A stretch of DNA of 40,771 nt, from the sequence record PQ999132.1; one strand, written 5' to 3'. This document shows positions 1 to 40,771 of the stretch, piece after piece (position 1 is the stretch's first letter; each line of letters opens with the position of its first letter). Source of the DNA: Escherichia phage BUCT789. The notes under the pieces were generated by a model that saw nothing but the letters and a program-made list of their open reading frames with translations, was not told the DNA's origin and did not search any database. The position numbers and the translations under genes are program-made.

Positions 1-239
1 TTCTCTTCTTCTGCCGGTTTAGTGTCAACTAGGTCTTCACCTTCGACCGTGATTTCTTTCGTTACTTCTTTTACAACAGTAGGCGTGATTGTTGCAGTTT
101 CTGCTACACCACTGTCGACGTCTTTACCATATGGCGCCGTGATAGCCTTCGGCAGTTCAGTACGGCGTGCACTGTTCGCAGCAATCAGTTCATGTGCAAC
201 TACGAAACGTTCCAGTAATACTAAGAATTTCTCTAACAT
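1..239 (-). CDS. acidic hypothetical protein, 5' part; gene wraps the window junction and continues at 40366-40644
   Basis: ATG at 239-237 preceded by GAGGAG; frame stays open through position 1 and resumes at window end; D/E-rich product (MLEKFLVLLERF...KYFEEE). The + strand ORF 22..312 is its antisense shadow. Confidence 0.6.
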   Translation of the reverse strand, partial: MLEKFLVLLERFVVAHELIAANSARRTELPKAITAPYGKDVDSGVAETATITPTVVKEVTKEITVEGEDLVDTKPAEEE

Positions 240-270: not shown

Positions 271-299
271 ACTATAATAGCGAACTATTCACTTGTCAA
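271..299 (-). promoter_or_regulatory. sigma70-like promoter, TTGACA-N17-TATAGT (read on minus strand), for the leftward replication operon
   Basis: + strand tgtcaa at 294-299 and actata at 271-276 with a 17-nt spacer; same architecture at 34824-34852 and 38480-38508. Confidence 0.5.
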
Positions 300-363: not shown

Positions 364-579
364 ATGCAACCATCTGAACTAGGCATCCGTGTAGAACAGC
401 GCCGTAAAGAACTCGGTATTTCTCAGCGCCGTCTGGCTGTCCTGACCGGCGTTTCCCAGGGTGCAATTAACCAGCTTGCACTCGGGGTAACGCGGGACGT
501 CCGCCCAGCAACGCTGTTTAAACTGGCGGAAGTGCTAGAGGTAGACGCCAAGTGGCTGGCGTTCGGTGAAGGGGCTTAA
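364..579 (+). CDS. XRE-family helix-turn-helix transcriptional regulator (Cro/CI-like)
   Basis: 71 aa; RBS AAGGAG; HTH signature LGISQRRLAVLTGVSQGAINQL; divergent from the leftward operon. Confidence 0.8.
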   Translation: MQPSELGIRVEQRRKELGISQRRLAVLTGVSQGAINQLALGVTRDVRPATLFKLAEVLEVDAKWLAFGEGA

Positions 580-596: not shown

Positions 597-2855
597 CTAT
601 TCCAAATCTTCCTCGGTCGCTATCAGCATCTCATTCGGTTCGTATATCGTCTTCGGTCTTAATCTGTCCCCCATCTTTTCAGGTATCCGGTATGTGCCTG
701 GTATAACTTCACCGTTAACATCGCACCCGAGCATCAACTCACCGTCTTTCAGCATCTTCTCAAGATGGTGGTTGGTGATGGCGTGGTCCCCCGAGTTCGC
801 CACTATCTGCCGTTGGGTGAAACCTCGTCCGGTGTCGTCTGACTGTTGCAGGTCTTCCAACGCGGCAAGTATTGATTCCTTACGCCCTTCATCCTTCCCA
901 CGTTTTACCGCGTTCTTTACGTTTTCTTTACCTTCTTTCGTCAGCCCTTCTTCCCGCTCTTTCTCCTCGTCAGTCTTGAACGGCTCGAAGCCCCACGGCA
1001 TCAGTACAAGCGCCTTGTGTGGTTCTGGCAGGTCGAGGTTTACGATTGTGCCATATTCCTCTGTGCTACCGAGGAACTCAACCGCGCGGTACTCTTTCGG
1101 CGGCGGCGCTTCACGGAACTGTACCGACTCCAGCACCATGCCAACCGTCTTCTGTTGAGGCCCATGCTTAAATTTCGAGTGGTATACGTTTATCTGGCGG
1201 TCGGTAGCGCGCTCAATTGTCAGCTCCACATCAACACCGGCATACAGCGCCCCGCTACCACGGGCTTTCTTTCCACCCTTAGGCGTATGGTGGACGACAC
1301 CCACAGCGGCTTTAGTTGCGTCGCGTACTTTTTTAAGGATGGCGATAACTTTACCCATGCCAATTGCAGTTGATGAACTGTTCTCGTCGAACTTGTCAAT
1401 TGTCAGGGCCAGCGTCTGGTTGAGGGTATCGAACGCGACCATACCAATAGGCTCGTCCCCTGCAGCTTCACGCATCCTGCGGATTAGCGCGGGGATTTTT
1501 TTATCACCATGCGCGGCGAGCACCTCACCCATATCAATGACATGTACGTAATCTTTACCTTCCTCGCCATATTTAGCCGCGAGTGCATCTATACGTGTGC
1601 GGGTAGCTGCGCCGCCCTCACCGTCGATATAAAAATGGTGGCAACGCTGCGTATCAGCTCCCGCAAACCGGTATCCGGCGGCGCTCAGGTACATCATCCC
1701 CAGCGTATAGAACGATTTGTACGTGCCGGATTCCCCAACAATATCCCAGATGCAATCTGACGGCATGTACCCCTCAACGACGAAATCAGCCTTTACCGGT
1801 TCAGGTAGCTCGTCCTCTTCTGAGTCATCATCGTCTTCCAGGTCGTCGAGGCTGCATGAAACAGATTCACGCACACCCCATCCGATAGCCTCGGCGACTT
1901 CACTGAACGGCAGCCCGGTCGCATCACACGCGTATTTCCACACTTCTTTCGGGGGCATTCCTTCGGTCGCGGCAATGTCGGTGTCGTGAATCATGGTTAC
2001 GTTCGGCGCTTCGTATCCCTCGCGCGGGAAACATAACAGGAAGTCGTCCGGGCGTGGTGTCGGGTCGCTGTAGTTTTCTGCGTGTTCTGGCGTAGCTGGC
2101 ATCTTAAGGCCACGCGGCGTCATGATGCCGCCGTACTCGAATGCCAGTGCTTCAAACGCATCTGTAAACGCGGTGCGCAGTTCTTCCGGTATCTGGTAAT
2201 CAGATGCGCTGCTGATGTCAACGGCTGGGACGCCTTCCAGTAACTCATCAGGGTCAATCAGGTCGTTGCGGCGCGACCAGATAACGGTAGCGCCGACAGG
2301 AGGCAAGTACATCGGCTGCGAAAGAGTGAACCCGCTGCGGTCGGCGCCCATGCCTTTGAAGAAGTGTTCCAGTAACCCATGACGAACGCGGATGATGTCA
2401 CCGCCTTCAACCGGGCTGGCCAGCGGCATGACGACACGAAAGCGCGGTGACTCATCTGTATGTGACGCCGTGGTATACAGGCACATCGCCCGGCGGCTAC
2501 GCTTAACCAGGCGCACCGCTTCTTGATACTCTTCCGGTGTTGCACTGTCGAAGTCCAGATACGCCAGCGACGATTTGCTTACAGACGCGTCACAGCGATA
2601 GAAGAAGCCTTTACGCGCTTGCTTAAAGTCACCGGTTTCCGGGTCTTTTACGGTGCTGTGCGTAGAGTCGCACGCGGCTGTGATATAGCCGGGGGCGGTC
2701 TTCGGGTTAATCCCGTCGCGAACGGCATCGAGCGGCTGAATTAACTCTTTCAGGTCGTCCAGTGTTGCCGTGTGTGTGGTTCTGACGTTTATATCCTTTT
2801 TCTCTGCCCGCGCGTTGCGACGTGACCACGAGTAGGATAAAATTACATCGGACAT
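597..2855 (-). CDS. DNA primase/helicase (RepA-like RecA-fold ATPase with N-terminal primase-like domain)
   Basis: 752 aa; Walker A GESGTYKS in the C-terminal half; large N-terminal domain; ends in EEDLE. Confidence 0.75.
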   Translation of the reverse strand: MSDVILSYSWSRRNARAEKKDINVRTTHTATLDDLKELIQPLDAVRDGINPKTAPGYITAACDSTHSTVKDPETGDFKQARKGFFYRCDASVSKSSLAYLDFDSATPEEYQEAVRLVKRSRRAMCLYTTASHTDESPRFRVVMPLASPVEGGDIIRVRHGLLEHFFKGMGADRSGFTLSQPMYLPPVGATVIWSRRNDLIDPDELLEGVPAVDISSASDYQIPEELRTAFTDAFEALAFEYGGIMTPRGLKMPATPEHAENYSDPTPRPDDFLLCFPREGYEAPNVTMIHDTDIAATEGMPPKEVWKYACDATGLPFSEVAEAIGWGVRESVSCSLDDLEDDDDSEEDELPEPVKADFVVEGYMPSDCIWDIVGESGTYKSFYTLGMMYLSAAGYRFAGADTQRCHHFYIDGEGGAATRTRIDALAAKYGEEGKDYVHVIDMGEVLAAHGDKKIPALIRRMREAAGDEPIGMVAFDTLNQTLALTIDKFDENSSSTAIGMGKVIAILKKVRDATKAAVGVVHHTPKGGKKARGSGALYAGVDVELTIERATDRQINVYHSKFKHGPQQKTVGMVLESVQFREAPPPKEYRAVEFLGSTEEYGTIVNLDLPEPHKALVLMPWGFEPFKTDEEKEREEGLTKEGKENVKNAVKRGKDEGRKESILAALEDLQQSDDTGRGFTQRQIVANSGDHAITNHHLEKMLKDGELMLGCDVNGEVIPGTYRIPEKMGDRLRPKTIYEPNEMLIATEEDLE

Positions 2856-3748: not shown

Positions 3749-3777
3749 TTGCACACCCCAACATAATAGGATACTAT
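3749..3777 (+). promoter_or_regulatory. promoter, TTGCAC-N17-TACTAT with conserved spacer ATAATAGG
   Basis: TTGCAC 3749-3754, TACTAT 3772-3777; conserved leader TTATCGAAACGAG then RBS GAGGAG; near-identical copies at 5188-5216 and 22864-22892. Confidence 0.55.
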
Positions 3778-3811
3778 TCACTTATCGAAACGAGACAGAG
3801 GAGTGAGGGTT

Positions 3812-5187: not shown

Positions 5188-5216
5188 TTGCACACACAGA
5201 TATAATAGACTACTAT
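5188..5216 (+). promoter_or_regulatory. promoter, TTGCAC-N17-TACTAT (second copy)
   Basis: TTGCAC 5188-5193, TACTAT 5211-5216; same spacer core and TTATCGAAACGAG leader as 3749-3777. Confidence 0.55.
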
Positions 5217-5245
5217 TCAGTTATCGAAACGAGAGGAGAGAGAAG

Positions 5246-22835: not shown

Positions 22836-22863
22836 AATTATTTCCTCAGTAAGTTACATGTGA

Positions 22864-22892
22864 ATAGTACCCTATTATATTGGGGTGTGCAA
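22864..22892 (-). promoter_or_regulatory. promoter, TTGCAC-N17-TACTAT (minus strand), for the accessory cassette
   Basis: Reverse complement reads cTTGCACaccccaatataatagggTACTATtcacatg, near-identical to 3749-3777. Confidence 0.55.
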
Positions 22893-30911: not shown

Positions 30912-32711
30912 ATGTCAAGCGGATGCGGTGACGTTTTAAGCCTGGTGGATTTACAAACCGCCAAGAAACACCAGATTTTCGAAGCTGAGGTAATTACCGG
31001 GAAACAAGGTGGTGTCGCTGGTGGTGCTGATATTGATTACGCGACCAATCAGGTAACCGGGCAGACGCAGAAGACGCTCCCAGCCGTGTTGCGTGACGCG
31101 GGCTTTTCTCCTGTGTCGTGGGATTTCTCCACGGGCGGCACGTTAACTGTTGACGACCGCGACAAAGTTGTCTATGACCCTGTAAGTAAAACGTGGTATT
31201 CGTACGCGGGTACGTTGCCTGTTGTGGTTCCTGCATCCTTTAACCCGGTTGGTAACGCTAACTGGAAACCGCAGACAGACCCGGACTTACGTAGCGATTT
31301 AGAAACAATGTGGGCAGACGGCAGTTTCCCGGAAGCCGTTAGATATAAATACGGGCTGCCAACTGTAGTTGACGGCGCTGTATATAGAACTGTTCAAGAT
31401 AAGCTGGATGATTTTGTATGTCTAGAGGATTTTGGCGGAAAAGACGATGAGGGCGTTACCGACAATTCTTTAGCATTCCAGAAAGCATTCGCGGCGGGCG
31501 CTAAGAAAATTTATCTTAAAGGTTCTGGTGTTTATGGAATGGCAACCAGAGACATTGAGCTTCCCGCAAAATATGAAATTATTGGTAACGCAAAAAATCC
31601 AGAGATTAAGTATTTGGGGTCGGACACGTCATTCACAATGTTTACACTTACCGGAACCGGGCCAGAATCTGGCAATTGGAAACAGGGAGGCACATTCCGA
31701 GATGTAGTAATATCATCTGACGTGCAGATTAACTGGATTCTTTGCCGTCATGTTCAAAACTTAGAATTTGATAGGGTTTTCTTCTATAACGCGCAAACTG
31801 TTATGAACAACTACCACTACGTTAACTTCTTCCGGTGTGAACGTTGGGGAAGTCCATTCATTGGGCGTGCGGATTTAAATACCGTACAGTTTATAAGTGA
31901 ATCACCTAAGTTTCTTATGTGTTTCAGCTCTAACTCTCCGATTGACGTGTGGGATACCGCCGATTTATATATCAGCCAGTGTACGATGTTTGCGGGAGAA
32001 TACGCGGTAAGAACACGCACAACACTTGGTGGAATGGGTGGGACAGACCAATTTGCTGGCTACCCTGTTTTAATTTCGAATAGCGTTTTTGATGCCATCA
32101 ACGGCTCAGCTTTCGATATGGAGGACCTCGCATATTCCTCAATAAACGGCAACATTATTAGCGCAGGGAGGGTGAACAATGTCCGTGGAATTAATATTAA
32201 AGGTGCCAGAAACCTGGCGTTTACCGGAAACACTATCACTTACTGTGGTGATTTTGGCATGGTATTAGAAAATGCTGAACAATGTTCTTTGTCAAATAAT
32301 ATATTCAACGGAAATAAGACTGGGGGCCTCTCATTGGTAAACTGCAAGGAGATATCTGTCATTGGCGGAGCTATGGGTACGTCTTACATCAAAGGTGGGT
32401 ACTACGTGCAACCACTTGGCATAACAGACCCCGCCGATAACTGTAACGGCATAACCATCAATGGCGTTTCTTTCGATAGCGATATGACGAACAAGATTAT
32501 CCTCAACACTTCTGAGGCGCGTAAAAACCGTATTATAGCCTGCCTTGGCGTCAACGATACTCAGACGACTTATCAGAACAGGGGGTCTACAGCGCAACGC
32601 CCTTCAGCACCTGTAAGTGGTCAGCAGTATTACGATGCGTCCCTGGGGATTCCTATCTGGTGGAACTCAGTTAGTGGTACATGGAAAAACGCAGCAGGTG
32701 CTAACGTATAA
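30912..32711 (+). CDS. tailspike / receptor-binding protein with predicted right-handed beta-helix (depolymerase-type)
   Basis: 599 aa; repeated beta-helix-like units (NGNIISAG..., GNTITYCGDFG..., NNIFNGNKTGG...); last structural gene. Confidence 0.7.
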   Translation: MSSGCGDVLSLVDLQTAKKHQIFEAEVITGKQGGVAGGADIDYATNQVTGQTQKTLPAVLRDAGFSPVSWDFSTGGTLTVDDRDKVVYDPVSKTWYSYAGTLPVVVPASFNPVGNANWKPQTDPDLRSDLETMWADGSFPEAVRYKYGLPTVVDGAVYRTVQDKLDDFVCLEDFGGKDDEGVTDNSLAFQKAFAAGAKKIYLKGSGVYGMATRDIELPAKYEIIGNAKNPEIKYLGSDTSFTMFTLTGTGPESGNWKQGGTFRDVVISSDVQINWILCRHVQNLEFDRVFFYNAQTVMNNYHYVNFFRCERWGSPFIGRADLNTVQFISESPKFLMCFSSNSPIDVWDTADLYISQCTMFAGEYAVRTRTTLGGMGGTDQFAGYPVLISNSVFDAINGSAFDMEDLAYSSINGNIISAGRVNNVRGINIKGARNLAFTGNTITYCGDFGMVLENAEQCSLSNNIFNGNKTGGLSLVNCKEISVIGGAMGTSYIKGGYYVQPLGITDPADNCNGITINGVSFDSDMTNKIILNTSEARKNRIIACLGVNDTQTTYQNRGSTAQRPSAPVSGQQYYDASLGIPIWWNSVSGTWKNAAGANV

Positions 32712-32717
32712 AACTAA

Positions 32718-32737
32718 GGCCCCGAAAGGGGCCTTTT
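32718..32737. terminator. bidirectional rho-independent terminator
   Basis: ggcccc-gaaa-ggggcc with T-runs on both strands; ends both convergent operons. Confidence 0.7.
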
Positions 32738-32739
32738 CT

Positions 32740-32877
32740 CTACTCGTCTGATAACTTCTCCAGTACAAACGCCAGTTGCGCATTAGCGGCGTCTCTCTGT
32801 TGCCGTAGTCTTAGGACTTCCTCTTCGAGTTCCTTGATACGTTTTTGCAATGCCGGAATTGGGGCTATGATGTTCAT
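32740..32877 (-). CDS. small coiled-coil protein (45 aa; absent from the ORF track)
   Basis: Minus ATG 32877 overlaps the helicase stop (ATGA); product MNIIAPIPALQKRIKELEEEVLRLRQQRDAANAQLAFVLEKLSDE. Confidence 0.4.
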   Translation of the reverse strand: MNIIAPIPALQKRIKELEEEVLRLRQQRDAANAQLAFVLEKLSDE

Positions 32878-34304
32878 TTCTTACCTCGTCTCTTCATGTA
32901 ATTAAGCAACTCTTCCTGTACAGATTTCTTCTCGTCCGTACGCGCGGCAACAACCTCATCCAGCGTGTCTTTGGCAACGATATGATAGAGGAACACTGGG
33001 CGCTCGTGGCCTGCCTGTTTCTGGCGGACCGGGCCTATACGCTCGACAACCTGCAAATAGTGCTCAAGGTTCCAGCCTTGCGAGATGAATGCCAGATGAT
33101 GTCCGCCGTCCTGTAAATTCAAACCATGACCGGCTGACGCAGGGTGGACACATAAGATTTCGATTTCCCCGCGGTTCCACGCTTCCATCTGCTTATTACC
33201 CTTGGCGCCTTTTGCAAACGCCTGTGCCTGCGGGAATCGCTTAAGGATGCGCTCCAGTTCATGCTTAAACTGATAAGCCACAAGCAACGGTGCGCCCTGT
33301 AACTCCTCAACGATAGACTCCAGCGCATCCAGTTTCGTGTCGTGCACTTTCTCCCAGTCTTTGGTTGCCTCACCGTCTGGCCCCGACACATATACGGCAC
33401 CGGAGGCAATCTGCAAACACTTTGACGTCTTCGCCGCCGCGTTAGCCGCTTCAACTTCTCCGCTCTCCAGTTCCGCGAATAACTTCTCCTCCATATCGAT
33501 GTACGCCTGACGCGCCTTCTTCGGCAGGTCGATTTCAACCGGAACAATAATCGGCGCTTCGCAACCGAACCACTCTGCGGCGTCAATAGTGAGACTGATG
33601 TCCTTCATCTTCTGGTGAATTTCATTATCCGCGCCAGGGCGCGCATGATACTCACGCGCCATCGCGGATTTGCCTTTCTGTACCGAGTTAAACCAGCGGT
33701 CGGTGAATGCGGTGTATGAAGAACCGAGCCGCTCGCCCGCGTCGATAAACCAGTTCTGACCCCACAGGTCCTTGAGTCCGTTTGGCGACGGTGTGCCCGT
33801 CAGGTTAATGAAACGCTTAACTTTACCGAACGCAACCTTGCTGAGGGCCTTAGCCCTTTTGCTACCACCTGAACGGCTGCGGAACGATTTCAGCTTCGTG
33901 CTCTCATCAGCAACAATAACCGTAAAAGGCCAGTCGTCTTTGCCGTAGTAGTCAATAAGCCATTCGATAACTTCGTAGTTCGTGCAAACCACGTTAGCAT
34001 CCGACTCCAGCGCCGCGATGCGGCGCTTCTCTGAACCAGTCGCATCGACGACACGCAGACAAGGGAAGTTCCAACGTGCCTGTTCCGCGGGCCACGTACC
34101 TGACGCAACACGTAAAGGGGCAAGAATTAACACTCGGTCGTCGTCATTAAGTTGCCCATTACGGAACAGTCGATTGAGAACCCACAACGTTGACCCCGAC
34201 TTGCCGCTGCCCATCGAAGCCCAAATATTACAGCGAGGGTGCCGCAGCATGAACGAAGTCATGAGCTTTTGGTACTCTCGACGGATAAATTTAGACATAA
34301 TCAA
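32874..34304 (-). CDS. SNF2-family (DEAD-like) helicase/ATPase
   Basis: 476 aa; Walker A GSGKSG, DExx-type VIVADEST, LTGTPSPN (SNF2 motif III), HGLNLQ. Confidence 0.8.
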   Translation of the reverse strand: MIMSKFIRREYQKLMTSFMLRHPRCNIWASMGSGKSGSTLWVLNRLFRNGQLNDDDRVLILAPLRVASGTWPAEQARWNFPCLRVVDATGSEKRRIAALESDANVVCTNYEVIEWLIDYYGKDDWPFTVIVADESTKLKSFRSRSGGSKRAKALSKVAFGKVKRFINLTGTPSPNGLKDLWGQNWFIDAGERLGSSYTAFTDRWFNSVQKGKSAMAREYHARPGADNEIHQKMKDISLTIDAAEWFGCEAPIIVPVEIDLPKKARQAYIDMEEKLFAELESGEVEAANAAAKTSKCLQIASGAVYVSGPDGEATKDWEKVHDTKLDALESIVEELQGAPLLVAYQFKHELERILKRFPQAQAFAKGAKGNKQMEAWNRGEIEILCVHPASAGHGLNLQDGGHHLAFISQGWNLEHYLQVVERIGPVRQKQAGHERPVFLYHIVAKDTLDEVVAARTDEKKSVQEELLNYMKRRGKK

Positions 34305-34495
34305 CCCTTAACGTAGAGCACCAGCTCTTTACGCCCGAACGCCGTAACGTTACCCGTTACATCTTCGATAACCAGTTTACCGTTCGACTCGACGAACACC
34401 GTATCAACGGCAACCGGACGTCGGGTCTTAACGTTGAAAATCATGTCGCCCGGTACGATGTCACGTGCGGGTTTGCGGTCATATTCGTGTTTCAT
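34301..34495 (-). CDS. hypothetical protein (64 aa)
   Basis: Stop overlaps the helicase ATG (ATGA). Confidence 0.5.
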   Translation of the reverse strand: MKHEYDRKPARDIVPGDMIFNVKTRRPVAVDTVFVESNGKLVIEDVTGNVTAFGRKELVLYVKG

Positions 34496-34516
34496 TTCTC
34501 AATTCCTTATAGTTAA

Positions 34517-34530
34517 GGCCCCGAAGGGCC
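34517..34530 (-). terminator. intra-operon hairpin (attenuator-like)
   Basis: ggccc-cgaa-gggcc; moderately T-rich downstream on the minus strand. Confidence 0.35.
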
Positions 34531-34534
34531 TGTA

Positions 34535-34789
34535 TTAGTTAGATAATTCGCCTTGAACTTGCTTAATAAGTTCTCTGGCCGTTGTGAAGTCTACGGACAG
34601 CCCTTTAGCGACGTCTTCCGCAAGCACCTTGTGGCCAACTGACCCGAAGCCCAGGATACGGTTTACTTCCGAAACCTTCATATACCATGAGTAATTAACT
34701 GACGCCCCTGTGTATTTACCGATACGAACAGATGAATCGATTGAACCAATAATCATGGTGTTTACTGACAGTTGAAGTTCGATAGCCAT
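34535..34789 (-). CDS. hypothetical protein (84 aa)
   Basis: ATG 34789 immediately follows the VRR-NUC stop. Confidence 0.5.
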   Translation of the reverse strand: MAIELQLSVNTMIIGSIDSSVRIGKYTGASVNYSWYMKVSEVNRILGFGSVGHKVLAEDVAKGLSVDFTTARELIKQVQGELSN

Positions 34790-34790
34790 T

Positions 34791-35105
34791 TTATAATTCC
34801 TTATATTGTTGGGGTATGTGCTTACTATAATAGTCTGCTATTAGGGTGTCAATCTGTTTTATCGAACCAACGACAAAAACATTTGCGCCACGTTTGCGCA
34901 TCCGCTCATGCTCACGTAGCTGGTGGGGGTCAGGCTTCGTGTTTTCGTCTTTCTTAACCTCGACGAACCAGACGACGCCGCCGGGGAGAATTGCCAGCAG
35001 GTCGGGGGCGCCGGAACGCCCCTCGTAGGAAAGTTTACGAACGAGGCCACCAAGGGCCTCGAATCGCTCCTTTGCATATTTCTGTATTTTGCCTTCCGGG
35101 GTCAT
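34791..35105 (-). CDS. VRR-NUC domain nuclease
   Basis: Motif GAPDLLAILPGGVVWFVEVK; start taken as ATG 35105 overlapping the upstream small ORF stop; track lists TTG 35120. Confidence 0.7.
   Translation of the reverse strand: MTPEGKIQKYAKERFEALGGLVRKLSYEGRSGAPDLLAILPGGVVWFVEVKKDENTKPDPHQLREHERMRKRGANVFVVGSIKQIDTLIADYYSKHIPQQYKEL
34824..34852 (-). promoter_or_regulatory. sigma70-like promoter, TTGACA-N17-TATAGT (minus strand), inside the 3' end of the VRR-NUC gene
   Basis: + strand tgtcaa 34847-34852 and actata 34824-34829, 17-nt spacer. Confidence 0.45.
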
Positions 35106-35254
35106 GAGCGCAGAACCCAAGTAAGGAAAGCCCCGCCCAGAACGGCAACACCGACAAAATTAAAGAACAGGCCATAGCAGAACATCGCGGCTATTCCCGC
35201 ACCGAGTAGAAGTGCGAGCATGGTTACTATCGTCCAAAATACAAACATTGTCAT
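35102..35254 (-). CDS. small hydrophobic membrane protein (50 aa; absent from the ORF track)
   Basis: GAGGGG RBS; product MTMFVFWTIVTMLALLLGAGIAAMFCYGLFFNFVGVAVLGGAFLTWVLRS; stop overlaps the VRR-NUC ATG. Confidence 0.45.
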   Translation of the reverse strand: MTMFVFWTIVTMLALLLGAGIAAMFCYGLFFNFVGVAVLGGAFLTWVLRS

Positions 35255-35336
35255 AATACGCACCCCTCACGTTTCGTGTGCTCAATCCCGCAGCGCGGAC
35301 AGATTCGACAGTCTTCTTCATAGAACCAGTAGATTT

Positions 35337-35468
35337 TCATTCCAGCACCCACAGATAAATTGCGATGAACATACCTAATACGGCTACAATCATGCCGTAT
35401 TGGCCCTCGTGACAGTAGACACCGGCGGCAAATCCCGCCAGTACTGCGATAATCAGTTTACTTAGCAT
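35337..35468 (-). CDS. small hydrophobic membrane peptide (43 aa; absent from the ORF track)
   Basis: ATG 35468 overlaps the 3' end of the polymerase gene; product MLSKLIIAVLAGFAAGVYCHEGQYGMIVAVLGMFIAIYLWVLE. Confidence 0.4.
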   Translation of the reverse strand: MLSKLIIAVLAGFAAGVYCHEGQYGMIVAVLGMFIAIYLWVLE

Positions 35469-37731
35469 AACGGTACACCTCTTCCCCAGCCCATGTTAAC
35501 GGGAACCCTTCGGCCCACTCAGGTAATGAGCATAGCAGGTCACCCATCTCTTTAACCGTGTACTCTGGCGTGTCTGGCGTTTCGGCAACACATTCGTCAT
35601 GTACGTGGAGTACAATTGGGTAGCCCGCCGCCTCGACCGTCAGGAGTCCGTTAACCAGTAAATCACGGCACAACGCCTGGATGATGTTTTCACACAATTT
35701 TCCGCCGTGGGTGTACAAAGTTGTCCACTGGCGGGTGGTCTGATTTTCACCCTGATACTTAATGCGGACGTTAGTAGTAACGCGCCCATCCTCGTCAGTC
35801 TCTTTAGTGACGCTTAAGCCTATGCCAGGGTAGGACATGATGCGCCCAGACGGCAGTTCCACGCACAACCACCAACCCGGAACCGGATTACCGTGGTTGT
35901 CTTTTTCTTTGGTACGCCAGATGCGGATGGCTCTGTCGCCGTTAAGGCGTACTCGGGCCCCCGCCCAAAACTCTCGTCCCGGATTTCTGATGGCGGCTAT
36001 CACCGAATCCTTAAGGTCATTCCAGAATTTCACTGTTTCCGGATGGGCTTCCCGCCACATGCGCTTAATGGCGTCACAGGTGCGCCAGACTTCTTTAGGC
36101 AGCACATAAGAGGCCCGTTCATCTTTTTTACCAGGCTTTGGCGGGCGTTTAGCCTCCTGAATTCTGGCCCATTCGTAGCCACGGGCGGTAGCCGCCCAAA
36201 TGTGGTCGGGGAACGTGCCCCGCATTGTCTCTGTCATTTTAAAGAGGTCCAGCCCGTAAGTTTTAGCCATAGTCATAAAAGCCCCTACGCCCCCCTCGTA
36301 GCCGAGGCCGAGTTCGCAACATTTCCCGACCTGACGTAGGTCCTTACGGGTGGCTTTTAGTTCTACGGGGTCCATGCCAAACATCTTGCCCGCGGTGGCG
36401 CAATAAATATCAATCCCTGCGCGGAAGGTCTCAAGCGCGGATGTCTCCCCCGCGGTCCAGGCCAACCCGCGCCCTTCTACGTTTGAGTAGTCGGCAACGA
36501 GCAACTTATTACCCTTTTCAGGGATGATGCAACTGCGAACAGTCGAGGCTGTCAGCTTGGATACGTCGAAACGACGGTGCGCCCGACCCTTTAGCAGCAG
36601 ATTGATGCCGAACGATAGGGGGTTGAGACGACGGTTCCAGTCTTCGTCGGACTCCCACGGCTGGCGTACAAGTTTCTTCTCCTCGTTAGTCGGGTCATCA
36701 TGATAGTACCCGCGCGACAGGTTCTGCGGCTGGAACCCTTTACCCGCAAATCGTAAAGTGCGCTTTGCCCCACCGTACTGGATGCAACCGCGGCGGCGGC
36801 CGTCTTTGGACCGTCCTAGCAGGAGCGGTTTGTATTTTGTCGACGCCGTGGAGGCCGCGCCGAGGCGCATCTCAATGATTGTGCGCGCATCGTCAGGTAA
36901 GTCGTCGTCCTCTAGCAAACCTTCGAGCGTTGCTTTCTGCGCATTATAGATATTGTAGGCCGGTGCCAGCTCCCGAAGGATTGGCAGGAAGTCTTTACCC
37001 GTTAGCTTCCCGCCAAATTTAGCCCTGGCCTCGTTTTTTAGCTCTTGCTTGTGGCGTTCAACTGCTGCTACCGCCGCCTCAGCAAGAGCCGCATCAACAA
37101 AGAAGCCTCGGTCGTTGATTAACTGGTCAAGTTCAAGTACACGGTCCTCGAAATCGGAGTTACCCCAACGTGGCAGCTTATGGAAGACTTCACGCATCGC
37201 TGTGATGTCGCTCACGGCGTACTTGATGAACAGCGCCCATTCGTCCGGGTGCGTTTCGGCGGTGTAGCGGCGGATTTTATAGTTCTTCGGGGTTGGTTTG
37301 GAGAAACGCTGAATCAGAGCCTTGCCACGTTTATCTTTCGCGTTGTCGGCGGATACGCCCAGCACTTCGCATAATGCGTCAAGTGAACCCGGCAGCGCGT
37401 GGCGAAACGCCCAAATCATAGTGTCAATGGTGTTGCTGACCGGAATATCGAAGCCCCAGCAGTTCTTCATGATGAGCCTATCGAAAAGTCCACCGTTATG
37501 CCACACCATCTTAATGCGACTGTTTGGCTTCACCAGACGGCGTAACGCGCGGTGTAAATCTCCCGGCATGTCGCTGCCGTCAGTGCAGTCCCATACCTGA
37601 ACAGGCTCGTCATCAAAAGCATAGGTGCAGATGAGCACTTCGGTAGTCGGGTGTTCGGCGTAAGCATAGGAGCCGACTTTCTTCAAATCGGCTTCGGAGA
37701 AGGTTTCAAAGTCTAAGAACAGATAACTCAT
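35458..37731 (-). CDS. family A DNA polymerase with N-terminal 3'-5' exonuclease domain
   Basis: 757 aa; exo motif LDFETFSE; motif A DYSNVEGRGLAW, motif B RQVGKCCELGLGYEGG, motif C LHVHDE. Confidence 0.9.
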   Translation of the reverse strand: MSYLFLDFETFSEADLKKVGSYAYAEHPTTEVLICTYAFDDEPVQVWDCTDGSDMPGDLHRALRRLVKPNSRIKMVWHNGGLFDRLIMKNCWGFDIPVSNTIDTMIWAFRHALPGSLDALCEVLGVSADNAKDKRGKALIQRFSKPTPKNYKIRRYTAETHPDEWALFIKYAVSDITAMREVFHKLPRWGNSDFEDRVLELDQLINDRGFFVDAALAEAAVAAVERHKQELKNEARAKFGGKLTGKDFLPILRELAPAYNIYNAQKATLEGLLEDDDLPDDARTIIEMRLGAASTASTKYKPLLLGRSKDGRRRGCIQYGGAKRTLRFAGKGFQPQNLSRGYYHDDPTNEEKKLVRQPWESDEDWNRRLNPLSFGINLLLKGRAHRRFDVSKLTASTVRSCIIPEKGNKLLVADYSNVEGRGLAWTAGETSALETFRAGIDIYCATAGKMFGMDPVELKATRKDLRQVGKCCELGLGYEGGVGAFMTMAKTYGLDLFKMTETMRGTFPDHIWAATARGYEWARIQEAKRPPKPGKKDERASYVLPKEVWRTCDAIKRMWREAHPETVKFWNDLKDSVIAAIRNPGREFWAGARVRLNGDRAIRIWRTKEKDNHGNPVPGWWLCVELPSGRIMSYPGIGLSVTKETDEDGRVTTNVRIKYQGENQTTRQWTTLYTHGGKLCENIIQALCRDLLVNGLLTVEAAGYPIVLHVHDECVAETPDTPEYTVKEMGDLLCSLPEWAEGFPLTWAGEEVYRYAK

Positions 37732-37751
37732 TATTTTGACCCTTAGTAAAA

Positions 37752-37769
37752 AGGCCCAATAAAGGGCCT
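37752..37769 (-). terminator. rho-independent terminator/attenuator between SSB-like and polymerase genes
   Basis: aggccc-aataaa-gggcct; minus strand continues with TTTTTACT. Confidence 0.5.
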
Positions 37770-37789
37770 TAATTAAACAGATTCAGATA

Positions 37790-38422
37790 TTAACCACGGC
37801 GACGACGTTCGCGGCGCGGTGCTTCATCTTCTTCGTCGTCTTCCAGGTCGTCGGTGCTCGCTACTACACTGGAGCCGCCGAAGCGTTTACCTTCGCCCAT
37901 ATACTTGATGCCGAGGATGGTAGCGCACAGGTTTTTCCAATCTTTGTGCCACCATAATTCTACAGATACGTTTGCGATACATCCGCTATATACCTGCTCG
38001 CCTTCTATTTCTTTCCCGTCGATGTTGAAATCAGGCTCGGTTTGTTTTTCACCTTTAGCCGATGTCATAATCACCGGTTGGCGGTTGTTTGTAGCGCGGA
38101 AATACAGACCTTCTTCAAAATCCTCAATCGGATTATCTCGCATTGCCAGGTCACGGACGCAGCATTTGTCTGCGTGGTGGTCTGCACCGTAGTTGGCCTT
38201 CATCCATTTCTCGGCAGCAGCGGCCCCGATTGCATCTGTTACAACTTCCAACGCGGTGTCGTAAAGCGCATCAATTTGAGGATGGTCAGGCTGCATAAGA
38301 ACAGTAACCTGATACTTACCCTTAATCAGTTTACCGGTTTTCTTGTCCTCAGAGTCGGCAGCACGTTCAAATACGTTAACCCATGCAGTGTTTACTTTAC
38401 GCAGATTCAGTTTAATACCCAT
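37790..38422 (-). CDS. single-strand DNA-binding protein candidate (DUF2815-like) with acidic C-terminal tail
   Basis: 210 aa; C-terminus STDDLEDDEEDEAPRRERRRRG; sits next to the Cas4-like nuclease. Confidence 0.5.
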   Translation of the reverse strand: MGIKLNLRKVNTAWVNVFERAADSEDKKTGKLIKGKYQVTVLMQPDHPQIDALYDTALEVVTDAIGAAAAEKWMKANYGADHHADKCCVRDLAMRDNPIEDFEEGLYFRATNNRQPVIMTSAKGEKQTEPDFNIDGKEIEGEQVYSGCIANVSVELWWHKDWKNLCATILGIKYMGEGKRFGGSSVVASTDDLEDDEEDEAPRRERRRRG

Positions 38423-38479
38423 CGTGATTTCTCGCTTTTCAGTTTCGTTTACTCCGGGAGCTGCCCGGCCAGTGATTTA

Positions 38480-38508
38480 ACTATAATAGTTAGCTATTCA
38501 GGAGTCAA
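38480..38508 (-). promoter_or_regulatory. sigma70-like promoter, TTGACT-N17-TATAGT (minus strand)
   Basis: + strand agtcaa 38503-38508 and actata 38480-38485, 17-nt spacer. Confidence 0.5.
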
Positions 38509-38512
38509 CACT

Positions 38513-39754
38513 TTATTCTAAATCTTCTTCACTAACCTGATTCCACCCAGGCCGTTTGTCGTCTGCCGTTGCGACACATGGTGCGCCGGGCTTACGGGTA
38601 ATGAAGTCTTTCAGTTCTTCCTCCGGTATTACTTTAACCGCTTCGGCCGGCGTCATAAGAACTACCTTTTGCAGCATAGTGCCGTACTTCTCAAATACTG
38701 CATCGGTATCTTTCCACGCACGATTACCAGGACGACCTTCAACCAGCTTATACCCCGGCACTTTCTTACCGGAATGCAAAGCGGCTGCCATAGCTTTCTC
38801 AACCTTGTCGATGTGCTGGCGCAACAACGGCAACTTCTCGTACTCAGCTACGAGTTGCTCTGGTGTCAGTTCCAGTGCAAAGTCGCCCTCCAGTTCTTCC
38901 GCCAGTACCGAGTTAACGGTTTTTGTACGCGTGGCGCACTGTTCCGAGAACCGACACCACTGACATCCATCGACCGACGGCCTGAAGTCCGACGCTTTCA
39001 GGTTCTTTTTACCACGGAAATACGCATCAAGCGCCAACAGAGCTCGTTTCTGCGCGAACTTAGCGAACAGTTCCAGACCCTCGACCGAGATGTCCCATTC
39101 CGAAGCACCCCCGGCGTACGGCTGGAAAATAACCAGACGAACAACTGTGATGTTATAACGTCTCTTGAGTCGTCGATAAACACCGAGAGCGTAAAGCATA
39201 AGCTGCTTGTTTTCTTTCGCTTCAACACGATGTCGTCCTGTTTTAAGGTCGCCGATAATGAGCATGTGCTCGTCGGTGTTAACCAGTTCCTGTACGGCAA
39301 CAAGGTCGGCGGTTCCGAACGTCTCGACACCTTCATAACCTGGATGCAATACCTCAGTAAGATTGACGCGCATTTCCAGCTTGGCGTAAGTAGCTACGTC
39401 GATAATCGGTTTGCTGTAGTCGGTGTACTTGCGCACCTGCTCAATCATGTCGGCCGTAATCAGTACCGCCCCTTTCATCGGGCTGATTAGCGCCTTAATC
39501 TGGCCTTTACCCTCATCCAGCACATAAGCACCGACTTCGCGCTCTAACGGCAACGCAGTTCCGCGAATATAAGCGTTGAGATGTACCTCAGCTATGGTGT
39601 GGCACGCAGTACCTGTAACAGCCGCTTTACCTGACGTGTTAGGAATATCTTTTTCACAGGCCAGTGACGCCGCGCAGCTTAGCCACTTTTTAGCTCCCGA
39701 CGGTGACAGTAAGGCGTGTACATCGTTATTTCCGCCGCGTTCTTTTAGTTTCAT
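38513..39754 (-). CDS. Cas4/RecB-like PD-(D/E)XK exonuclease with Fe-S cysteines (DUF2800-like)
   Basis: N-terminal Cys plus C-terminal CQWCRFSEQC; IGDLKTGR...EAK nuclease core; ends SEEDLE; start ATG 39754 (track lists 39775). Confidence 0.7.
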   Translation of the reverse strand: MKLKERGGNNDVHALLSPSGAKKWLSCAASLACEKDIPNTSGKAAVTGTACHTIAEVHLNAYIRGTALPLEREVGAYVLDEGKGQIKALISPMKGAVLITADMIEQVRKYTDYSKPIIDVATYAKLEMRVNLTEVLHPGYEGVETFGTADLVAVQELVNTDEHMLIIGDLKTGRHRVEAKENKQLMLYALGVYRRLKRRYNITVVRLVIFQPYAGGASEWDISVEGLELFAKFAQKRALLALDAYFRGKKNLKASDFRPSVDGCQWCRFSEQCATRTKTVNSVLAEELEGDFALELTPEQLVAEYEKLPLLRQHIDKVEKAMAAALHSGKKVPGYKLVEGRPGNRAWKDTDAVFEKYGTMLQKVVLMTPAEAVKVIPEEELKDFITRKPGAPCVATADDKRPGWNQVSEEDLE

Positions 39755-39909
39755 GCTCTTAAACTCCCGCCCCATTTAACTTTACGCGTTTTGCGTTTAT
39801 AGGCGCACGTGTCGCCGCTACGGTTGAAGATGATCAGCCAAGTCGAGTTGCTTACTCGAAAAGGCTGGTGACGTTTAATAAAGATAAGTCGCGCTTTACG
39901 GTTCGTCAT
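39751..39909 (-). CDS. small basic hypothetical protein (about 52 aa; absent from the ORF track)
   Basis: ATGA-coupled at both ends within the leftward operon. Confidence 0.35.
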   Translation of the reverse strand: MTNRKARLIFIKRHQPFRVSNSTWLIIFNRSGDTCAYKRKTRKVKWGGSLRA

Positions 39910-40052
39910 TCTTCTACCCTCTCCACCCAAGCATCGTCAAAAGTATCAAAATCAAGATTATCGTATGCTGCGTATGCGGCAGGTACATCCAGGTATCGGC
40001 TGTGCTCTGTAGCCACGCCGTTAGTGTAAGTAAATATCGCCCAGTAAATCAT
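39907..40052 (-). CDS. small acidic hypothetical protein (about 48 aa; absent from the ORF track)
   Basis: ATG 40052 overlaps the upstream stop; own stop overlaps the next ATG. Confidence 0.35.
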
Positions 40053-40321
40053 GCTCTGCTCTCCCACTGGTCAATTAAATGTCTTGTCTTATAGTCACAG
40101 TGCATGGCCCAGCTGTACATCGACTCAAAGACATAAAAGTCAGGTTTGGCGAATGTCGTGCGCTTAATCTGTGACACGTGTCGGCCTATATCTTTAGGCC
40201 GAGGTACTTTGCCTAAGTACGCCATCTCTTCCATCTGGTGCGCACCTGACGGCGCACGTAGCAGCCATAGCGCCTCTGTGCCATCCCGTCTGTCTACGGC
40301 GCGGTAGAGTTGGTAAATCAT
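40049..40321 (-). CDS. hypothetical protein (90 aa)
   Basis: RBS GAGGGT upstream on the minus strand. Confidence 0.55.
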   Translation of the reverse strand: MIYQLYRAVDRRDGTEALWLLRAPSGAHQMEEMAYLGKVPRPKDIGRHVSQIKRTTFAKPDFYVFESMYSWAMHCDYKTRHLIDQWESRA

Positions 40322-40365
40322 AATTCCGACCCTCAGTTAAAGCGGCCAGAAGGCCGCGAGATAGT

Positions 40366-40771
40366 TATTCTTCTTCGAAGTACTTGTTCTTGATTGCCGT
40401 CAGGCGTTTCAGGTATTCGGCCAGGTCTTCGTCTTTAATCGCGGCAATCTTCATCTTCTTACCGGTGAACTCTTCCAGCAGTTCATCGGAATCATCACAC
40501 GCGGCATCGCTCGGACCTTCGTTAATCGCATCGTCGATAGCCTGAATCTGGTCACGCAGAGACTGGTAGTCGACTTCTTGTTTCTCTTCTTCCGGTTCTG
40601 GCGTATGTTCCTCTACTTTAGCTTTACGAGGTTTGCGTTTCGGCTTCTCTTCTTCTGCCGGTTTAGTGTCAACTAGGTCTTCACCTTCGACCGTGATTTC
40701 TTTCGTTACTTCTTTTACAACAGTAGGCGTGATTGTTGCAGTTTCTGCTACACCACTGTCGACGTCTTTAC
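40366..40771 (-). CDS. acidic hypothetical protein, 3' part (same gene as 1..239)
   Basis: Stop TAA at 40366-40368; frame continuous with 1..239 once the 127-bp duplicated end is collapsed. Confidence 0.6.
40645..40771. repeat. 127-bp terminal duplication of positions 1-127
   Basis: Exact identity by direct comparison; it lies inside a coding sequence, so most simply an assembly overlap of a circular or circularly permuted genome. Confidence 0.9.

Follow-up and report, generated by a model that had tools for sequence, protein, structure and literature searches.

The region between positions 32740 and 40771 of Escherichia phage BUCT789 (sequence record PQ999132.1) combines a leftward series of replication and recombination genes with two very small hydrophobic reading frames, and raises the questions of what kind of cluster this is and what such peptides are doing between a polymerase and a nuclease. 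Within the window (the whole stretch of DNA analysed, 40,771 nucleotides), the interval is an ordinary, already catalogued DNA replication/recombination cluster of a Kagunavirus-type E. coli/Salmonella phage. Escherichia phage hz69 (ON556632) covers 100% of the interval at 95% nucleotide identity, and 458 phage records match it, nearly all of them Salmonella, Escherichia or Kagunavirus phages (Kagunavirus/Jerseyvirus, Guernseyvirinae). The annotated synteny of related records (hz69, Henuyfy11N) agrees with that of the window cluster. Phage hz69 keeps the window's gene order throughout, from the junction-spanning gene through the three small ORFs between PolA and VRR-NUC to the 45-aa gene at the end, but a 684-bp cytosine methyltransferase gene that the window lacks lies between the SNF2 gene and g64; Henuyfy11N differs by an additional 516-bp gene adjoining the SNF2 gene.

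The contig is a circular assembly, because bases 1-127 repeat identically at 40645-40771; this overlap of 127 nt leaves 40,644 bp as the true length. Joining the contig ends restores a 172-aa gene (ATG at 239, stop at 40365), whose product matches phrog_3127 end to end (E=1.9e-65, residues 1-172). Read leftward from this gene, the cluster consists of the following:

1..239, minus strand: 5' portion of the first gene, which spans the junction (172 aa in all, acidic, lysine-rich)
40365..40771, minus strand: 3' part of the same gene (40645-40771 duplicate 1-127, the assembly overlap)
40049..40321, minus strand: g90, conserved hypothetical (phrog_4965, E=1.9e-43)
39906..40052, minus strand: g48, small hypothetical, ATGA-coupled, annotated in hz69
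39751..39909, minus strand: g52, small hypothetical, ATGA-coupled, annotated in hz69
38513..39754, minus strand: PD-(D/E)XK nuclease of the DUF2800 family (PF10926; RecB/AddB/Cas4-like fold) that carries a four-cysteine motif
37790..38422, minus strand: DUF2815/Enc34-type (T7 gp2.5-like) ssDNA-binding/annealing protein (PF10991, phrog_112)
35458..37731, minus strand: family A DNA polymerase (PF00476, phrog_17), N-terminal domain a 3'-5' exonuclease
35337..35468, minus strand: p43, 43 aa, two hydrophobic segments (phrog_10404, E=9.1e-31; GRAVY 1.53)
35251..35340, minus strand: p29, 29-aa Cys-rich microprotein (MKIYWFYEEDCRICPRCGIEHTKREGCVL; phrog_38225, E=2.5e-22)
35102..35254, minus strand: p50, 50 aa, almost wholly hydrophobic, helical (phrog_14925, E=4.7e-33; GRAVY 1.76)
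34791..35105, minus strand: VRR-NUC Holliday-junction-resolvase-type nuclease (PDB 4QBN)
34535..34789, minus strand: g84, hypothetical (phrog_11050, E=4.4e-19)
34301..34495, minus strand: g64, hypothetical (phrog_4879, E=1.7e-45)
32874..34298, minus strand: SNF2-family ATPase/translocase (PF00176, phrog_62; "DNA helicase" in the annotation of related phages)
32740..32877, minus strand: g45, 45 aa, coiled-coil-like, last gene of the cluster (phrog_5915, E=4.6e-27)

An earlier note on this DNA had described a leftward operon that crosses the window junction, and much of that description stands. Every ORF it named is present on the minus strand exactly where it was placed, the chain of minus-strand genes bears out the leftward orientation and continues across the junction, and profile searches uphold the five protein assignments (DUF2800, DUF2815, DNA_pol_A, VRR-NUC, SNF2). 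Stop-start coupling through ATGA is indeed prevalent, with 4-nt overlaps of this kind at 7 of 13 gene junctions (the others being one 11-nt overlap, two gaps of 1-2 nt and three gaps of 39-90 nt), and the presence of an exonuclease, an annealing-type SSB, a polymerase and a resolvase fits the proposed link between replication and recombination. Some claims went too far. A "self-contained replisome" would include a primase and a replicative helicase, which are absent from the interval and are encoded elsewhere:

597..2855, minus strand: replicative primase-helicase, 752 aa (phrog_3228, E=2.1e-300; AAA_25, E=5.1e-20)

This gene belongs to a separate leftward unit outside 32740-40771, with a rightward HTH gene and a bidirectional terminator in between. 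A single "operon" is likewise overstated, given three strong predicted sigma-70-like promoters and several hairpins:

271..299, minus strand: promoter P1, TTGACA-17-TATAGT, embedded palindrome GAATAG-N4-CTATTA (11/12 consensus matches)
38480..38508, minus strand: promoter P2, TTGACT-17-TATAGT, palindrome GAATAGCTAACTATTA, upstream of the SSB gene
34824..34852, minus strand: promoter P3, TTGACA-17-TATAGT, palindrome TAATAGCAGACTATTA, within the 3'-terminal part of the VRR-NUC gene
40342..40357, minus strand: GC hairpin GCGGCC-TTCT-GGCCGC followed by TTTAAC, just 3' of the first gene, seen in the sequence
37748..37770, minus strand: hairpin AAGGCCC-TTTATT-GGGCCTT followed by a T-run, 3' of the SSB gene
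34516..34531, minus strand: GC hairpin without a T-run, between g84 and g64
32716..32735, minus strand: intrinsic terminator (stem of 8 bp with 6 GC pairs, then a T-rich tail) closing the leftward cluster
364..579, plus strand: divergent Cro/CI-type HTH regulator gene (PF01381, E=6.5e-13)

P1 would drive transcription leftward through the cluster and over the window junction. The sequences of P1 and P2 are identical in hz69 and Henuyfy11N, and P3 is found at an unchanged position in each of the 55 Guernseyvirinae loci examined; its palindrome arms are almost invariant there, and most of the changes fall in the N4 centre or near the -35 hexamer. The TAATAG-N4-CTATTA palindrome is common to the three promoters, covers the spacer and the -10 hexamer, and as a pattern has 20 matches against 1.6 expected; the HTH protein (364..579) is a candidate binder, and in phage vB_Eco_K1B4 the HTH gene belongs to the early class (PMC12645636). 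The promoter model is a prediction from sequence; only one transcriptome has been published for a relative (PMC12645636), and it is coarse and even puts the polymerase in a late class. Amongst the hairpins, that at 40342..40357 is a possible attenuator or RNA-stabilising element, and that at 37748..37770, which is under the T-run threshold of the terminator scanner, is likely to be a partial intrinsic terminator. The hairpin at 34516..34531 is a near-copy of the terminal terminator stem (family D19), and the terminator at 32716..32735 stands opposite the tailspike gene, whose end is at 32711.

The nuclease at the head of the core set matches DUF2800 (PF10926, E=6.7e-66), PDDEXK_1 (PF12705, E=4.7e-9) and the "exonuclease" family phrog_69 (E=1.2e-118), and its profile reaches the AdnAB nuclease domain 6PPU (E=1.2e-4). 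Residues C27, D150, D169, K171, Q184, Y188, C267 and C273 do not vary across 93 homologues (27-54% identity), of which at least 90% keep C264. The label "Cas4-like" is apt at the level of fold and motif, as the protein shares with the iron-sulfur RecB-family domains of Cas4, AddB and AdnB an N-terminal Cys, D, D-x-K and QxxxY motifs and then C-x2-C-x5-C, but it does not extend to function in CRISPR, the context of which is absent. Unlike those domains, the window protein belongs to a Pfam family of its own (PF10926), has an extra conserved C-terminal domain of ~130 aa, and binds an Fe-S cluster only putatively. The SSB matches Enc34_ssDNA-bd (formerly DUF2815, PF10991; E=2.1e-11) and phrog_112 (E=3.8e-32) and ends in an acidic stretch followed by RRERRRRG; a phmmer search with it reached no PDB entry. 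The polymerase (PF00476, E=1.9e-12; phrog_17, E=3.1e-127; PDB matches to Taq and Bst Pol I) carries the motifs DFET, NGGLFD, YAVSD, DYSNVE and HDE, the proofreading motifs included, and for its C-terminal 79 residues there are two alleles, one with about 100% and the other with about 70% identity to the window. The exonuclease domain, VRR_NUC and Helicase_C all score under their Pfam gathering scores. For VRR-NUC the Pfam match reaches only E=0.011, alongside phrog_93 at E=1.9e-32 and saNUC of Salmonella phage SETP3 (4QBN) at E=2e-51, with 80/92 residues identical (87%) and a common PD...EVK catalytic motif. saNUC is a dimeric, Holliday-junction-resolvase-like enzyme that has been crystallised and shows weak junction cleavage in vitro (PMC4103454; 4QBN). 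The window protein differs from it in an 11-residue C-terminal extension, and P3 covers the codons just upstream of that extension. The SNF2 protein (SNF2-rel_dom PF00176, E=4.2e-11; phrog_62, E=2.3e-168; PDB SNF2 and CHD1L, ~1e-10) contains GSGKS (residue 30) and DEST (residue 131). Amongst the hypothetical proteins, g45 gives weak DUF1192 and ZapB-like matches under threshold, and the single-sequence AF2 model of g84 (pLDDT 46.5) is too low for use.

Both the cluster and its core are already known. The duf2800-gp2.5-polA module is in the literature (PMC8093625), as is the replication set of Enc34, with polymerase, VRR-NUC, helicase and the DUF2815 protein ORF6, which has SSB activity (PMC5686142). 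With both of these the window shares the linked trio of a PD-(D/E)XK nuclease, a DUF2815 OB-fold SSB and a family A polymerase, and with Enc34 also the succession of VRR-NUC and helicase and the absence of a separate ssb gene; the differences are low sequence identity and a Guernseyvirinae-specific p29/p43/p50 slot, which is outside the described module. The logic of exonuclease, annealing SSB, family A polymerase, primase-helicase and junction resolvase is also that of T7, where the set consists of gp6 exonuclease, gp2.5 (with known annealing activity), gp5 polymerase, gp4 primase-helicase and gp3 endonuclease I. The SSB fold class is common to T7 gp2.5 and the DUF2815-type protein, for which, in Enc34, only ssDNA binding has been demonstrated (PMC5686142). 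In contrast to T7, the nuclease and resolvase folds here are DUF2800 and VRR-NUC rather than gp6 exonuclease and endonuclease I, an extra SNF2 ATPase is present, the predicted promoters are of the host sigma-70 type rather than served by a phage RNA polymerase, and packaging is headful, whereas T7 has direct terminal repeats.

T7, whose exonuclease serves partly in host DNA breakdown, also sets a precedent for reading the DUF2800 and gp2.5-like proteins as acting chiefly to degrade host DNA, scavenge nucleotides or counter defences, with replication by a simple theta or rolling-circle mode. Recombination in Guernseyvirinae-type phages is itself deduced, and the transcriptome paper (PMC12645636) contains no functional data. 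This reading is nonetheless unlikely, as the linkage of nuclease, SSAP, polymerase and resolvase is kept across very distant phages (PMC8093625, PMC5686142), a junction resolvase and a branch-remodelling ATPase occur in the same cluster, and headful packaging, reported as of pac type for Jerseyvirus K47 (PMC10783031), implies terminally redundant ends that need recombination to circularise.

The small ORFs between polymerase and VRR-NUC pose the second question. The earlier note was exact about the coordinates of the two hydrophobic ORFs, which are under purifying selection (pN/pS 0.24 for p43 and 0.21 for p50), but regarded them as an oddity of a replication operon, where they are instead dispensable cassettes in a hypervariable slot. 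In 56 genomes this slot shows 11 architectures, with an HNH endonuclease, a soluble 64-aa protein or 23-25-aa mini hydrophobic peptides as further contents. The sole invariant gene in it is p29, present in 11/11 architectures and in 444 records (tblastn), with a pN/pS of 0.14; its ORF (35251-35340), like the internal promoters, was overlooked in the first reading. The Cys-rich p29 protein probably binds zinc, although several metagenomic alleles have R or F in place of its first cysteine, which weakens the case for a simple Cys4 site. Both p43 and p50 are genuine genes for what are predicted to be dispensable small inner-membrane proteins, p50 being modelled by AF2 as one 48-residue helix (2-49, pLDDT 92) and not as a hairpin. 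They are accessory, because only 223 phage records (~49% of related ones) have p43 and 120 (~26%) have p50. Neither a homologue outside the subfamily nor a family match was found for either.

It is rather improbable, somewhat more so than the host-DNA reading, that these peptides are parts of the replication machinery, such as an inner-membrane anchor of a polymerase/resolvase complex, with a position reflecting stoichiometric partnership. Such a role would suit their purifying selection and their translational coupling to PolA and VRR-NUC (p43 overlaps the PolA 3' end by 11 nt, and the other overlaps are ATGA), as well as the alternative mini hydrophobic peptides that fill the slot in other genomes and a hydrophobic ORF of 69 aa that, in a distant phage group (L057, VRR-NUC 46% identical), precedes VRR-NUC with ATGA coupling. 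However, about half of the related phages lack p43 and about three quarters lack p50, 7 of the 56 genomes have PolA-p29-VRR with hydrophobic peptides wholly absent, HNH endonucleases and the soluble 64-aa protein occupy the same slot, and VRR-NUC lies directly 3' of PolA in more distant phages (L064, L065). Least credible by far is that 35102-35468 is untranslated, as a non-coding spacer or with a plus-strand ORF (Henuyfy11N Gp27) as the real gene: the p29 stretch has no annotation in many GenBank records, a plus-strand ORF is annotated across the region in Henuyfy11N, and Pfam, NCBIfam and Rfam searches gave no match for the small ORFs, but the substitution pattern already contradicts a non-coding reading, with the minus-strand frames open and constant in length in all 40, 44 and 24 distinct alleles (internal stops being absent from the 40 of p43), pN/pS of 0.14-0.24 in frame against stops or values near or above 1 in other frames (~0.9-3.5 on the opposite strand), p29 substitutions that are almost all synonymous across genera, and a natural deletion between two TGATTAT repeats by which Jerseyviruses lost p43 and kept p29 in frame.

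The whole is therefore best explained, with high confidence, as the early/middle replication-recombination cluster of a lytic Kagunavirus, a siphophage in the subfamily Guernseyvirinae, on a circular assembly, together with the following working model. Host sigma-70 RNA polymerase would initiate at the predicted promoters P1, P2 and P3, where the neighbouring Cro-like HTH protein probably binds the TAATAG-N4-CTATTA palindromes as operators, and translation would proceed largely through ATGA stop-start coupling. The DUF2800 nuclease would resect DNA ends and the gp2.5-type protein would coat and anneal the single strands, annealing that may circularise the terminally redundant, headful-packaged genome and prime recombination-dependent concatemer synthesis. 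The proofreading family A polymerase would partner the primase-helicase, whose gene (597-2855) lies shortly past the junction, the SNF2 ATPase may remodel or migrate branches, and a dimeric VRR-NUC would resolve junctions ahead of packaging. Very small, hydrophobic, non-essential phage proteins also include inner-membrane exclusion proteins such as T4 Imm. Since p43 and p50 are likewise very small and hydrophobic, the analogy offers a lead, not membership, as family searches detected no sequence similarity to these proteins. The peptides p43 and p50 most likely have an accessory, moron-like function in these phages, such as superinfection exclusion or another host interaction, and would not be replisome parts.

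All long open reading frames (ORFs) between positions 32740 and 40771 of the window lie on the minus strand, and their coordinates, strand, and protein families bear out the observation in the earlier note of a leftward replication and recombination gene cluster. With start codons set by the annotation of the closest relatives, the cluster is composed as follows:

239 (ATG) across the window junction to 40365 (stop), minus strand, junction-spanning gene (172 aa, phrog_3127)
40049-40321, minus strand, g90, hypothetical protein
39906-40052, minus strand, g48, hypothetical protein
39751-39909, minus strand, g52, hypothetical protein
38513-39754, minus strand, DUF2800 nuclease
37790-38422, minus strand, DUF2815 SSB (single-stranded DNA-binding protein)
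35458-37731, minus strand, family A DNA polymerase (PolA)
35337-35468, minus strand, p43, small ORF
35251-35340, minus strand, p29, small ORF
35102-35254, minus strand, p50, small ORF
34791-35105, minus strand, VRR-NUC nuclease
34535-34789, minus strand, g84, hypothetical protein
34301-34495, minus strand, g64, hypothetical protein
32874-34298, minus strand, SNF2-family ATPase
32740-32877, minus strand, g45, hypothetical protein

Stop-start chaining, which had been proposed for most of the genes, is found as ATGA overlaps at seven of the 13 gene junctions; at one junction the genes overlap by 11 nt, at two they lie 1-2 nt apart, and at the remaining three the spacing is 39, 58, and 90 nt. The genes g64 and g84 have a near-identical translation-initiation region (TATAAGGAATT...AAATG; 34493-34511 and 34787-34805), and a single-sequence AlphaFold model of the g84 product is unusable (pLDDT 46.5). 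Positions 1-127 of the window are an exact duplicate of 40645-40771, and because the first and last 127 bases are identical, the record is a circular assembly whose ends overlap by 127 nt; its true length is 40,644 bp. The length of the duplication suggests the overlap of a k=127 assembler and a circular or circularly permuted genome. Joining the window ends restores the 172-aa ORF, which matches phrog_3127 over its full length; the cluster thus crosses the junction, and the start of the contig is arbitrary, as had been supposed.

The window is the complete genome of a lytic phage that belongs to the Guernseyvirinae and is Kagunavirus-like. The subfamily consists of lytic, glycan-dependent small siphoviruses and is well sampled (PMC11990801). 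The interval matches 458 phage records, almost all of them Salmonella, Escherichia, or named Kagunavirus phages, and 63 of these cover at least 80% of it; Escherichia phage hz69 is 95.1% identical in nucleotide sequence over 100% of the length. Gene order in annotated relatives is the same as in the window. In phage hz69, the SNF2 gene and g64 are separated by a gene of 684 bp for a DNA cytosine methyltransferase (L001 4552-5235, where L-numbers denote related loci collected for comparison), which is missing from the window at the site between 34298 and 34301, and in further relatives the helicase and polymerase genes harbor inteins or HNH genes (e.g., vB_SenS-Ent2). In published work, duf2800, gp2.5, and polA form a linked module in phages whose hosts are Gram-positive or Gram-negative, and such phages are noted to have no separate ssb gene (PMC8093625); the replication gene set of phage Enc34 comprises a polymerase, a VRR-NUC, a helicase, and the DUF2815 protein ORF6 (PMC5686142). 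At its core, therefore, the finding was known before, as a module of a subfamily that has been heavily sequenced.

Profile searches place the DUF2800, DUF2815, SNF2, and DNA_pol_A assignments of the earlier note above the Pfam cutoffs. The DUF2800 nuclease covers positions 1-368 of the 368-position profile (PF10926; E=6.7e-66, 223.4 bits against a gathering cutoff of 21) and also matches PDDEXK_1 (E=4.7e-9). Alignment of the window protein with 92 homologues at 27-54% identity (93 sequences) demonstrates invariant residues at C27, D150, D169, K171, Q184, Y188, C267, and C273, with C264 kept in at least 90% of homologues. The residues D150, D169, K171, Q184, and Y188 make up the catalytic D...D-x-K and QxxxY motifs of PD-(D/E)XK nucleases, and an Fe-S cluster of the Cas4 or AddB type could be held by the four cysteines, of which one is N-terminal and three form C-x2-C-x5-C. 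While a PDB search with the single sequence returned noise only, the 93-sequence profile reached mycobacterial AdnAB at its nuclease domain, which is RecB-type (6PPU; E=1.2e-4). Because the same motifs are aligned in this match, the description "Cas4-like" is right at the level of fold and motif, but it carries no CRISPR association: there are no cas genes among the ORF and annotation tables of the window and its relatives, and an Rfam scan of the whole window gave no hit. A tRNA scan of the window was also empty. The relatives listed in the DUF2800 homologue search are all at least 93% identical, a set too shallow for structure prediction.

The SSB matches the Enc34_ssDNA-bd family (PF10991, formerly DUF2815; E=2.1e-11, 44.3 bits against a cutoff of 26, residues 5-199) and phrog_112, the PHROG of gp2.5-like SSB and annealing proteins (E=3.8e-32). 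By family match it is predicted to be an SSB or single-strand annealing protein of the T7 gp2.5 type; Enc34 ORF6 is a T7-type SSB that has been crystallized (PMC5686142). The C-terminal tails of the Enc34 and T7 SSBs are described as acidic (PMC5686142), whereas the gene in the window (C-terminus within 37790-37850) encodes an acidic DDLEDDEEDE stretch followed by basic RRERRRRG, with no acidic or aromatic terminus. PDB sequence searches gave no match for the DUF2815 protein or for the primase-helicase encoded elsewhere in the window. The polymerase matches DNA_pol_A (PF00476; E=1.9e-12, 47.3 bits against a cutoff of 34.3), phrog_17 (E=3.1e-127), and the Taq and Bst Pol I structures in the PDB, and contains motif A (DYSNVE at residue 414) and motif C (HDE at residue 711). 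For a putative 3'-5' proofreading exonuclease domain, the PF01612 match reaches 20.8 bits where the cutoff is 23.6, and Exo I-III-like motifs (DFET, NGGLFD, and YAVSD) are present. The VRR-NUC assignment likewise falls below the Pfam cutoff (16.3 bits, E=0.011, against 23.8) and is upheld instead by homology to saNUC of Salmonella phage SETP3 (PDB 4QBN; E=2e-51, 80 of 92 residues identical), with a PD...E-x-K motif (PD at residue 34, EVK at residue 49) and further PDB matches to 4QBO (4.6e-8) and 4QBL (0.12). saNUC is a dimer resembling Holliday junction resolvases, with weak junction cleavage in vitro (PMC4103454). In the SNF2 protein, the N-terminal lobe (SNF2-rel_dom) scores 42.9 bits against a cutoff of 24.9 and the Helicase_C lobe 20 bits, below its cutoff of 23.5; GSGKS (Walker A) and DEST (DExx) motifs are present, and the PDB matches are to SNF2 and CHD1L.

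The replisome is not self-contained within the interval, as the replicative primase-helicase (752 aa, 597-2855; phrog_3228, E=2.1e-300; AAA_25) lies outside it in a separate leftward unit, set apart from the cluster by an HTH gene of the Cro/CI type that runs rightward (364-579) and by a bidirectional terminator (568-588). The description of the cluster as a simple operon also gives way, in this case to three internal or upstream matches to sigma-70-type promoters and a hairpin with a T-run after the SSB gene. The predicted signals are:

271-299, minus strand, predicted promoter P1, upstream of the junction gene
38480-38508, minus strand, predicted promoter P2, in the 90-nt gap before the SSB gene
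34824-34852, minus strand, predicted promoter P3, inside the 3' end of the VRR-NUC gene
40342-40357, hairpin after the junction gene
37748-37770, hairpin with a T-run after the SSB gene
between g84 and g64, hairpin
32716-32735, clean terminator closing the cluster

Each of P1-P3 matches the promoter consensus at 10-11 of 12 positions, in the form TTGAC(A/T)-17-TATAGT, and common to all three is a (G/T)AATAG-N4-CTATTA palindrome that covers the spacer and the first part of the -10 hexamer. The window contains 20 matches to the palindrome pattern versus 1.6 expected, including other copies with promoter-like hexamers at 320-333, 3765-3778, 5204-5217, and 22863-22876. P3 recurs at an unchanged position in each of the 55 related loci collected, where the palindrome arms hardly vary and most changes affect the four central bases or the surroundings of the -35 hexamer. 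The palindrome is a candidate operator for the divergently encoded 71-aa HTH protein (364-579). The sole transcriptome of a relative is too coarse to decide the promoter model (PMC12645636). A repeat search of the window added only the promoter pair and a common hairpin stem; the stems at 32715-32729 and 34514-34528 are near-copies of one another.

Between the PolA and VRR-NUC genes, the small ORFs p43 and p50 had been noticed as hydrophobic peptides, and p29 had been missed. In the loci with the same polymerase and VRR-NUC genes (49 from IMG/VR and six from GenBank), all three ORFs are intact and of constant length wherever they are present, with the following substitution patterns:

p43, 40 distinct alleles, in-frame pN/pS 0.24
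p29, 44 distinct alleles, in-frame pN/pS 0.14
p50, 24 distinct alleles, in-frame pN/pS 0.21

Each of the five alternative frames is either interrupted by stops in most or all alleles or has pN/pS of ~0.8-3.5, except for the antisense frame that shares third codon positions, whose pN/pS is similarly low (0.14-0.31) but which has internal stops in every allele. A plus-strand ORF annotated across this region in Henuyfy11N is rejected because of stop codons and pN/pS. Judging from their conservation and substitution patterns, p43, p29, and p50 are real genes. Pfam and NCBIfam searches of the three at permissive E-values returned sub-threshold noise only (EMC6, PufX, and a ZNF598 zinc finger).

The hydropathy of p43 and p50 is above the threshold used for transmembrane segments (a hydrophobic stretch of at least 19 residues with a mean Kyte-Doolittle value >1.6), with best 19-residue windows of 2.28 and 2.24 and GRAVY values of 1.53 and 1.76, respectively, and both are predicted to be small transmembrane proteins. 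In p43, two hydrophobic segments flank a CHEGQYG loop, while residues 2-46 of p50 are hydrophobic and its AlphaFold model is one continuous helix (pLDDT 92) that does not settle one versus two membrane spans. The p29 product (MKIYWFYEEDCRICPRCGIEHTKREGCVL) has the pattern CRICPRCG...H...C, a CPxCG knuckle with a Cys and a His distal to it, an arrangement suggestive of zinc binding; in several metagenomic alleles R or F takes the place of C11.

A tblastn search for the small ORFs against 50,697 phage records found p29 in 444, p43 in 223, and p50 in 120 of the roughly 458 records that carry the module. Although present in ~97% of related phage records, p29 is left unannotated in many GenBank records. 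When 5.8 billion proteins were searched with p43 and p50, only close relatives at least 67% identical were found, on ~40-45 kb contigs, with no distant homologue; "fusion" matches of 65-79 aa were frameshifted or truncated reads of the same locus. Among 56 genomes there are 11 gene orders from PolA to VRR-NUC, and p29 is the only constant gene. The slot that follows it, equivalent to window 35102-35254, differs between genomes (L010, L029, L020, L040, L055, and L042): it may be empty or contain p50, a soluble 64-aa protein with Cys residues, a homing endonuclease of the HNH type, or mini-peptides of 23-25 aa that are hydrophobic. In most Jerseyviruses (L003, L005, and L006 versus L004 and the window), the body of p43 is deleted between two TGATTAT direct repeats, joining the first seven p43 codons (MLSKLII) in frame to p29; because of this in-frame fusion, p29 does not lose its start and stays translationally coupled to PolA. 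The C-terminal 79 residues of PolA (35458-35700) occur in L007-L055 as two alleles, ~100% or ~70% identical to the window, and the flanking p43 and p29 are 84-100% identical in nearly all loci. Mosaic recombination is indicated at the PolA 3' end. The patchy distribution of p43 and p50 and the variable slot contents together argue that these genes are optional cassettes in a recombination and homing hot spot. The hydrophobic peptides are real genes, "unusual" overstates their position, and the conserved element of the slot region is p29.

Packaging in Jerseyvirus K47 is of the P1-like headful type (PMC10783031), so virion DNA would be terminally redundant. The DNA ends would be resected by the DUF2800 nuclease and annealed by the gp2.5-type protein, circularizing the genome and later seeding recombination-dependent concatemer synthesis, in which the family A polymerase would cooperate with the adjacent primase-helicase; branches would be migrated or remodelled by the SNF2 ATPase, and VRR-NUC would resolve junctions ahead of packaging. 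All of these steps are inferred from knowledge of the families and by analogy with gp6, gp2.5, gp5, gp4, and gp3 of T7.

For p43 and p50, an accessory membrane function (e.g., superinfection exclusion or another host interaction) is favored, since both are dispensable and have a cassette-like distribution. A rival reading makes p43 and p50 membrane tethers of the replisome. That half or more of related phages lack them weakens it, although other hydrophobic mini-peptides recur in the slot after p29 and, in a distant phage group, a hydrophobic ORF is coupled upstream of the VRR-NUC gene. In that group (L057 and relatives L058-L063; VRR-NUC 45-46% identical), the 69-aa ORF is ATGA-coupled directly upstream of the VRR-NUC gene in L057 (2295-2504), and L057 and L059 encode another hydrophobic segment just downstream of it. 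An improbable further reading would make p29 a zinc-binding cofactor coupling the polymerase to VRR-NUC, and p43, p50, and the 23-25-aa peptides swappable superinfection-exclusion or anti-defence cassettes spreading via the HNH hot spot.

The interpretation in the earlier note is largely right, its overstatements being "self-contained", "operon", and "unusual". The discovery value is small, given that hundreds of sequenced Guernseyvirinae carry the module, for the most part annotated, and that structures or family descriptions of its parts have been published. What is added is a corrected gene map from PolA to VRR-NUC with coding evidence for three micro-ORFs, the recognition of p29 as conserved yet absent from many GenBank annotations, and the cassette hot spot. 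Kagunavirus phages, which the BASEL collection now includes, serve as small chassis for synthetic biology, and the candidate promoter/operator palindrome may serve as a guide for Kagunavirus engineering.
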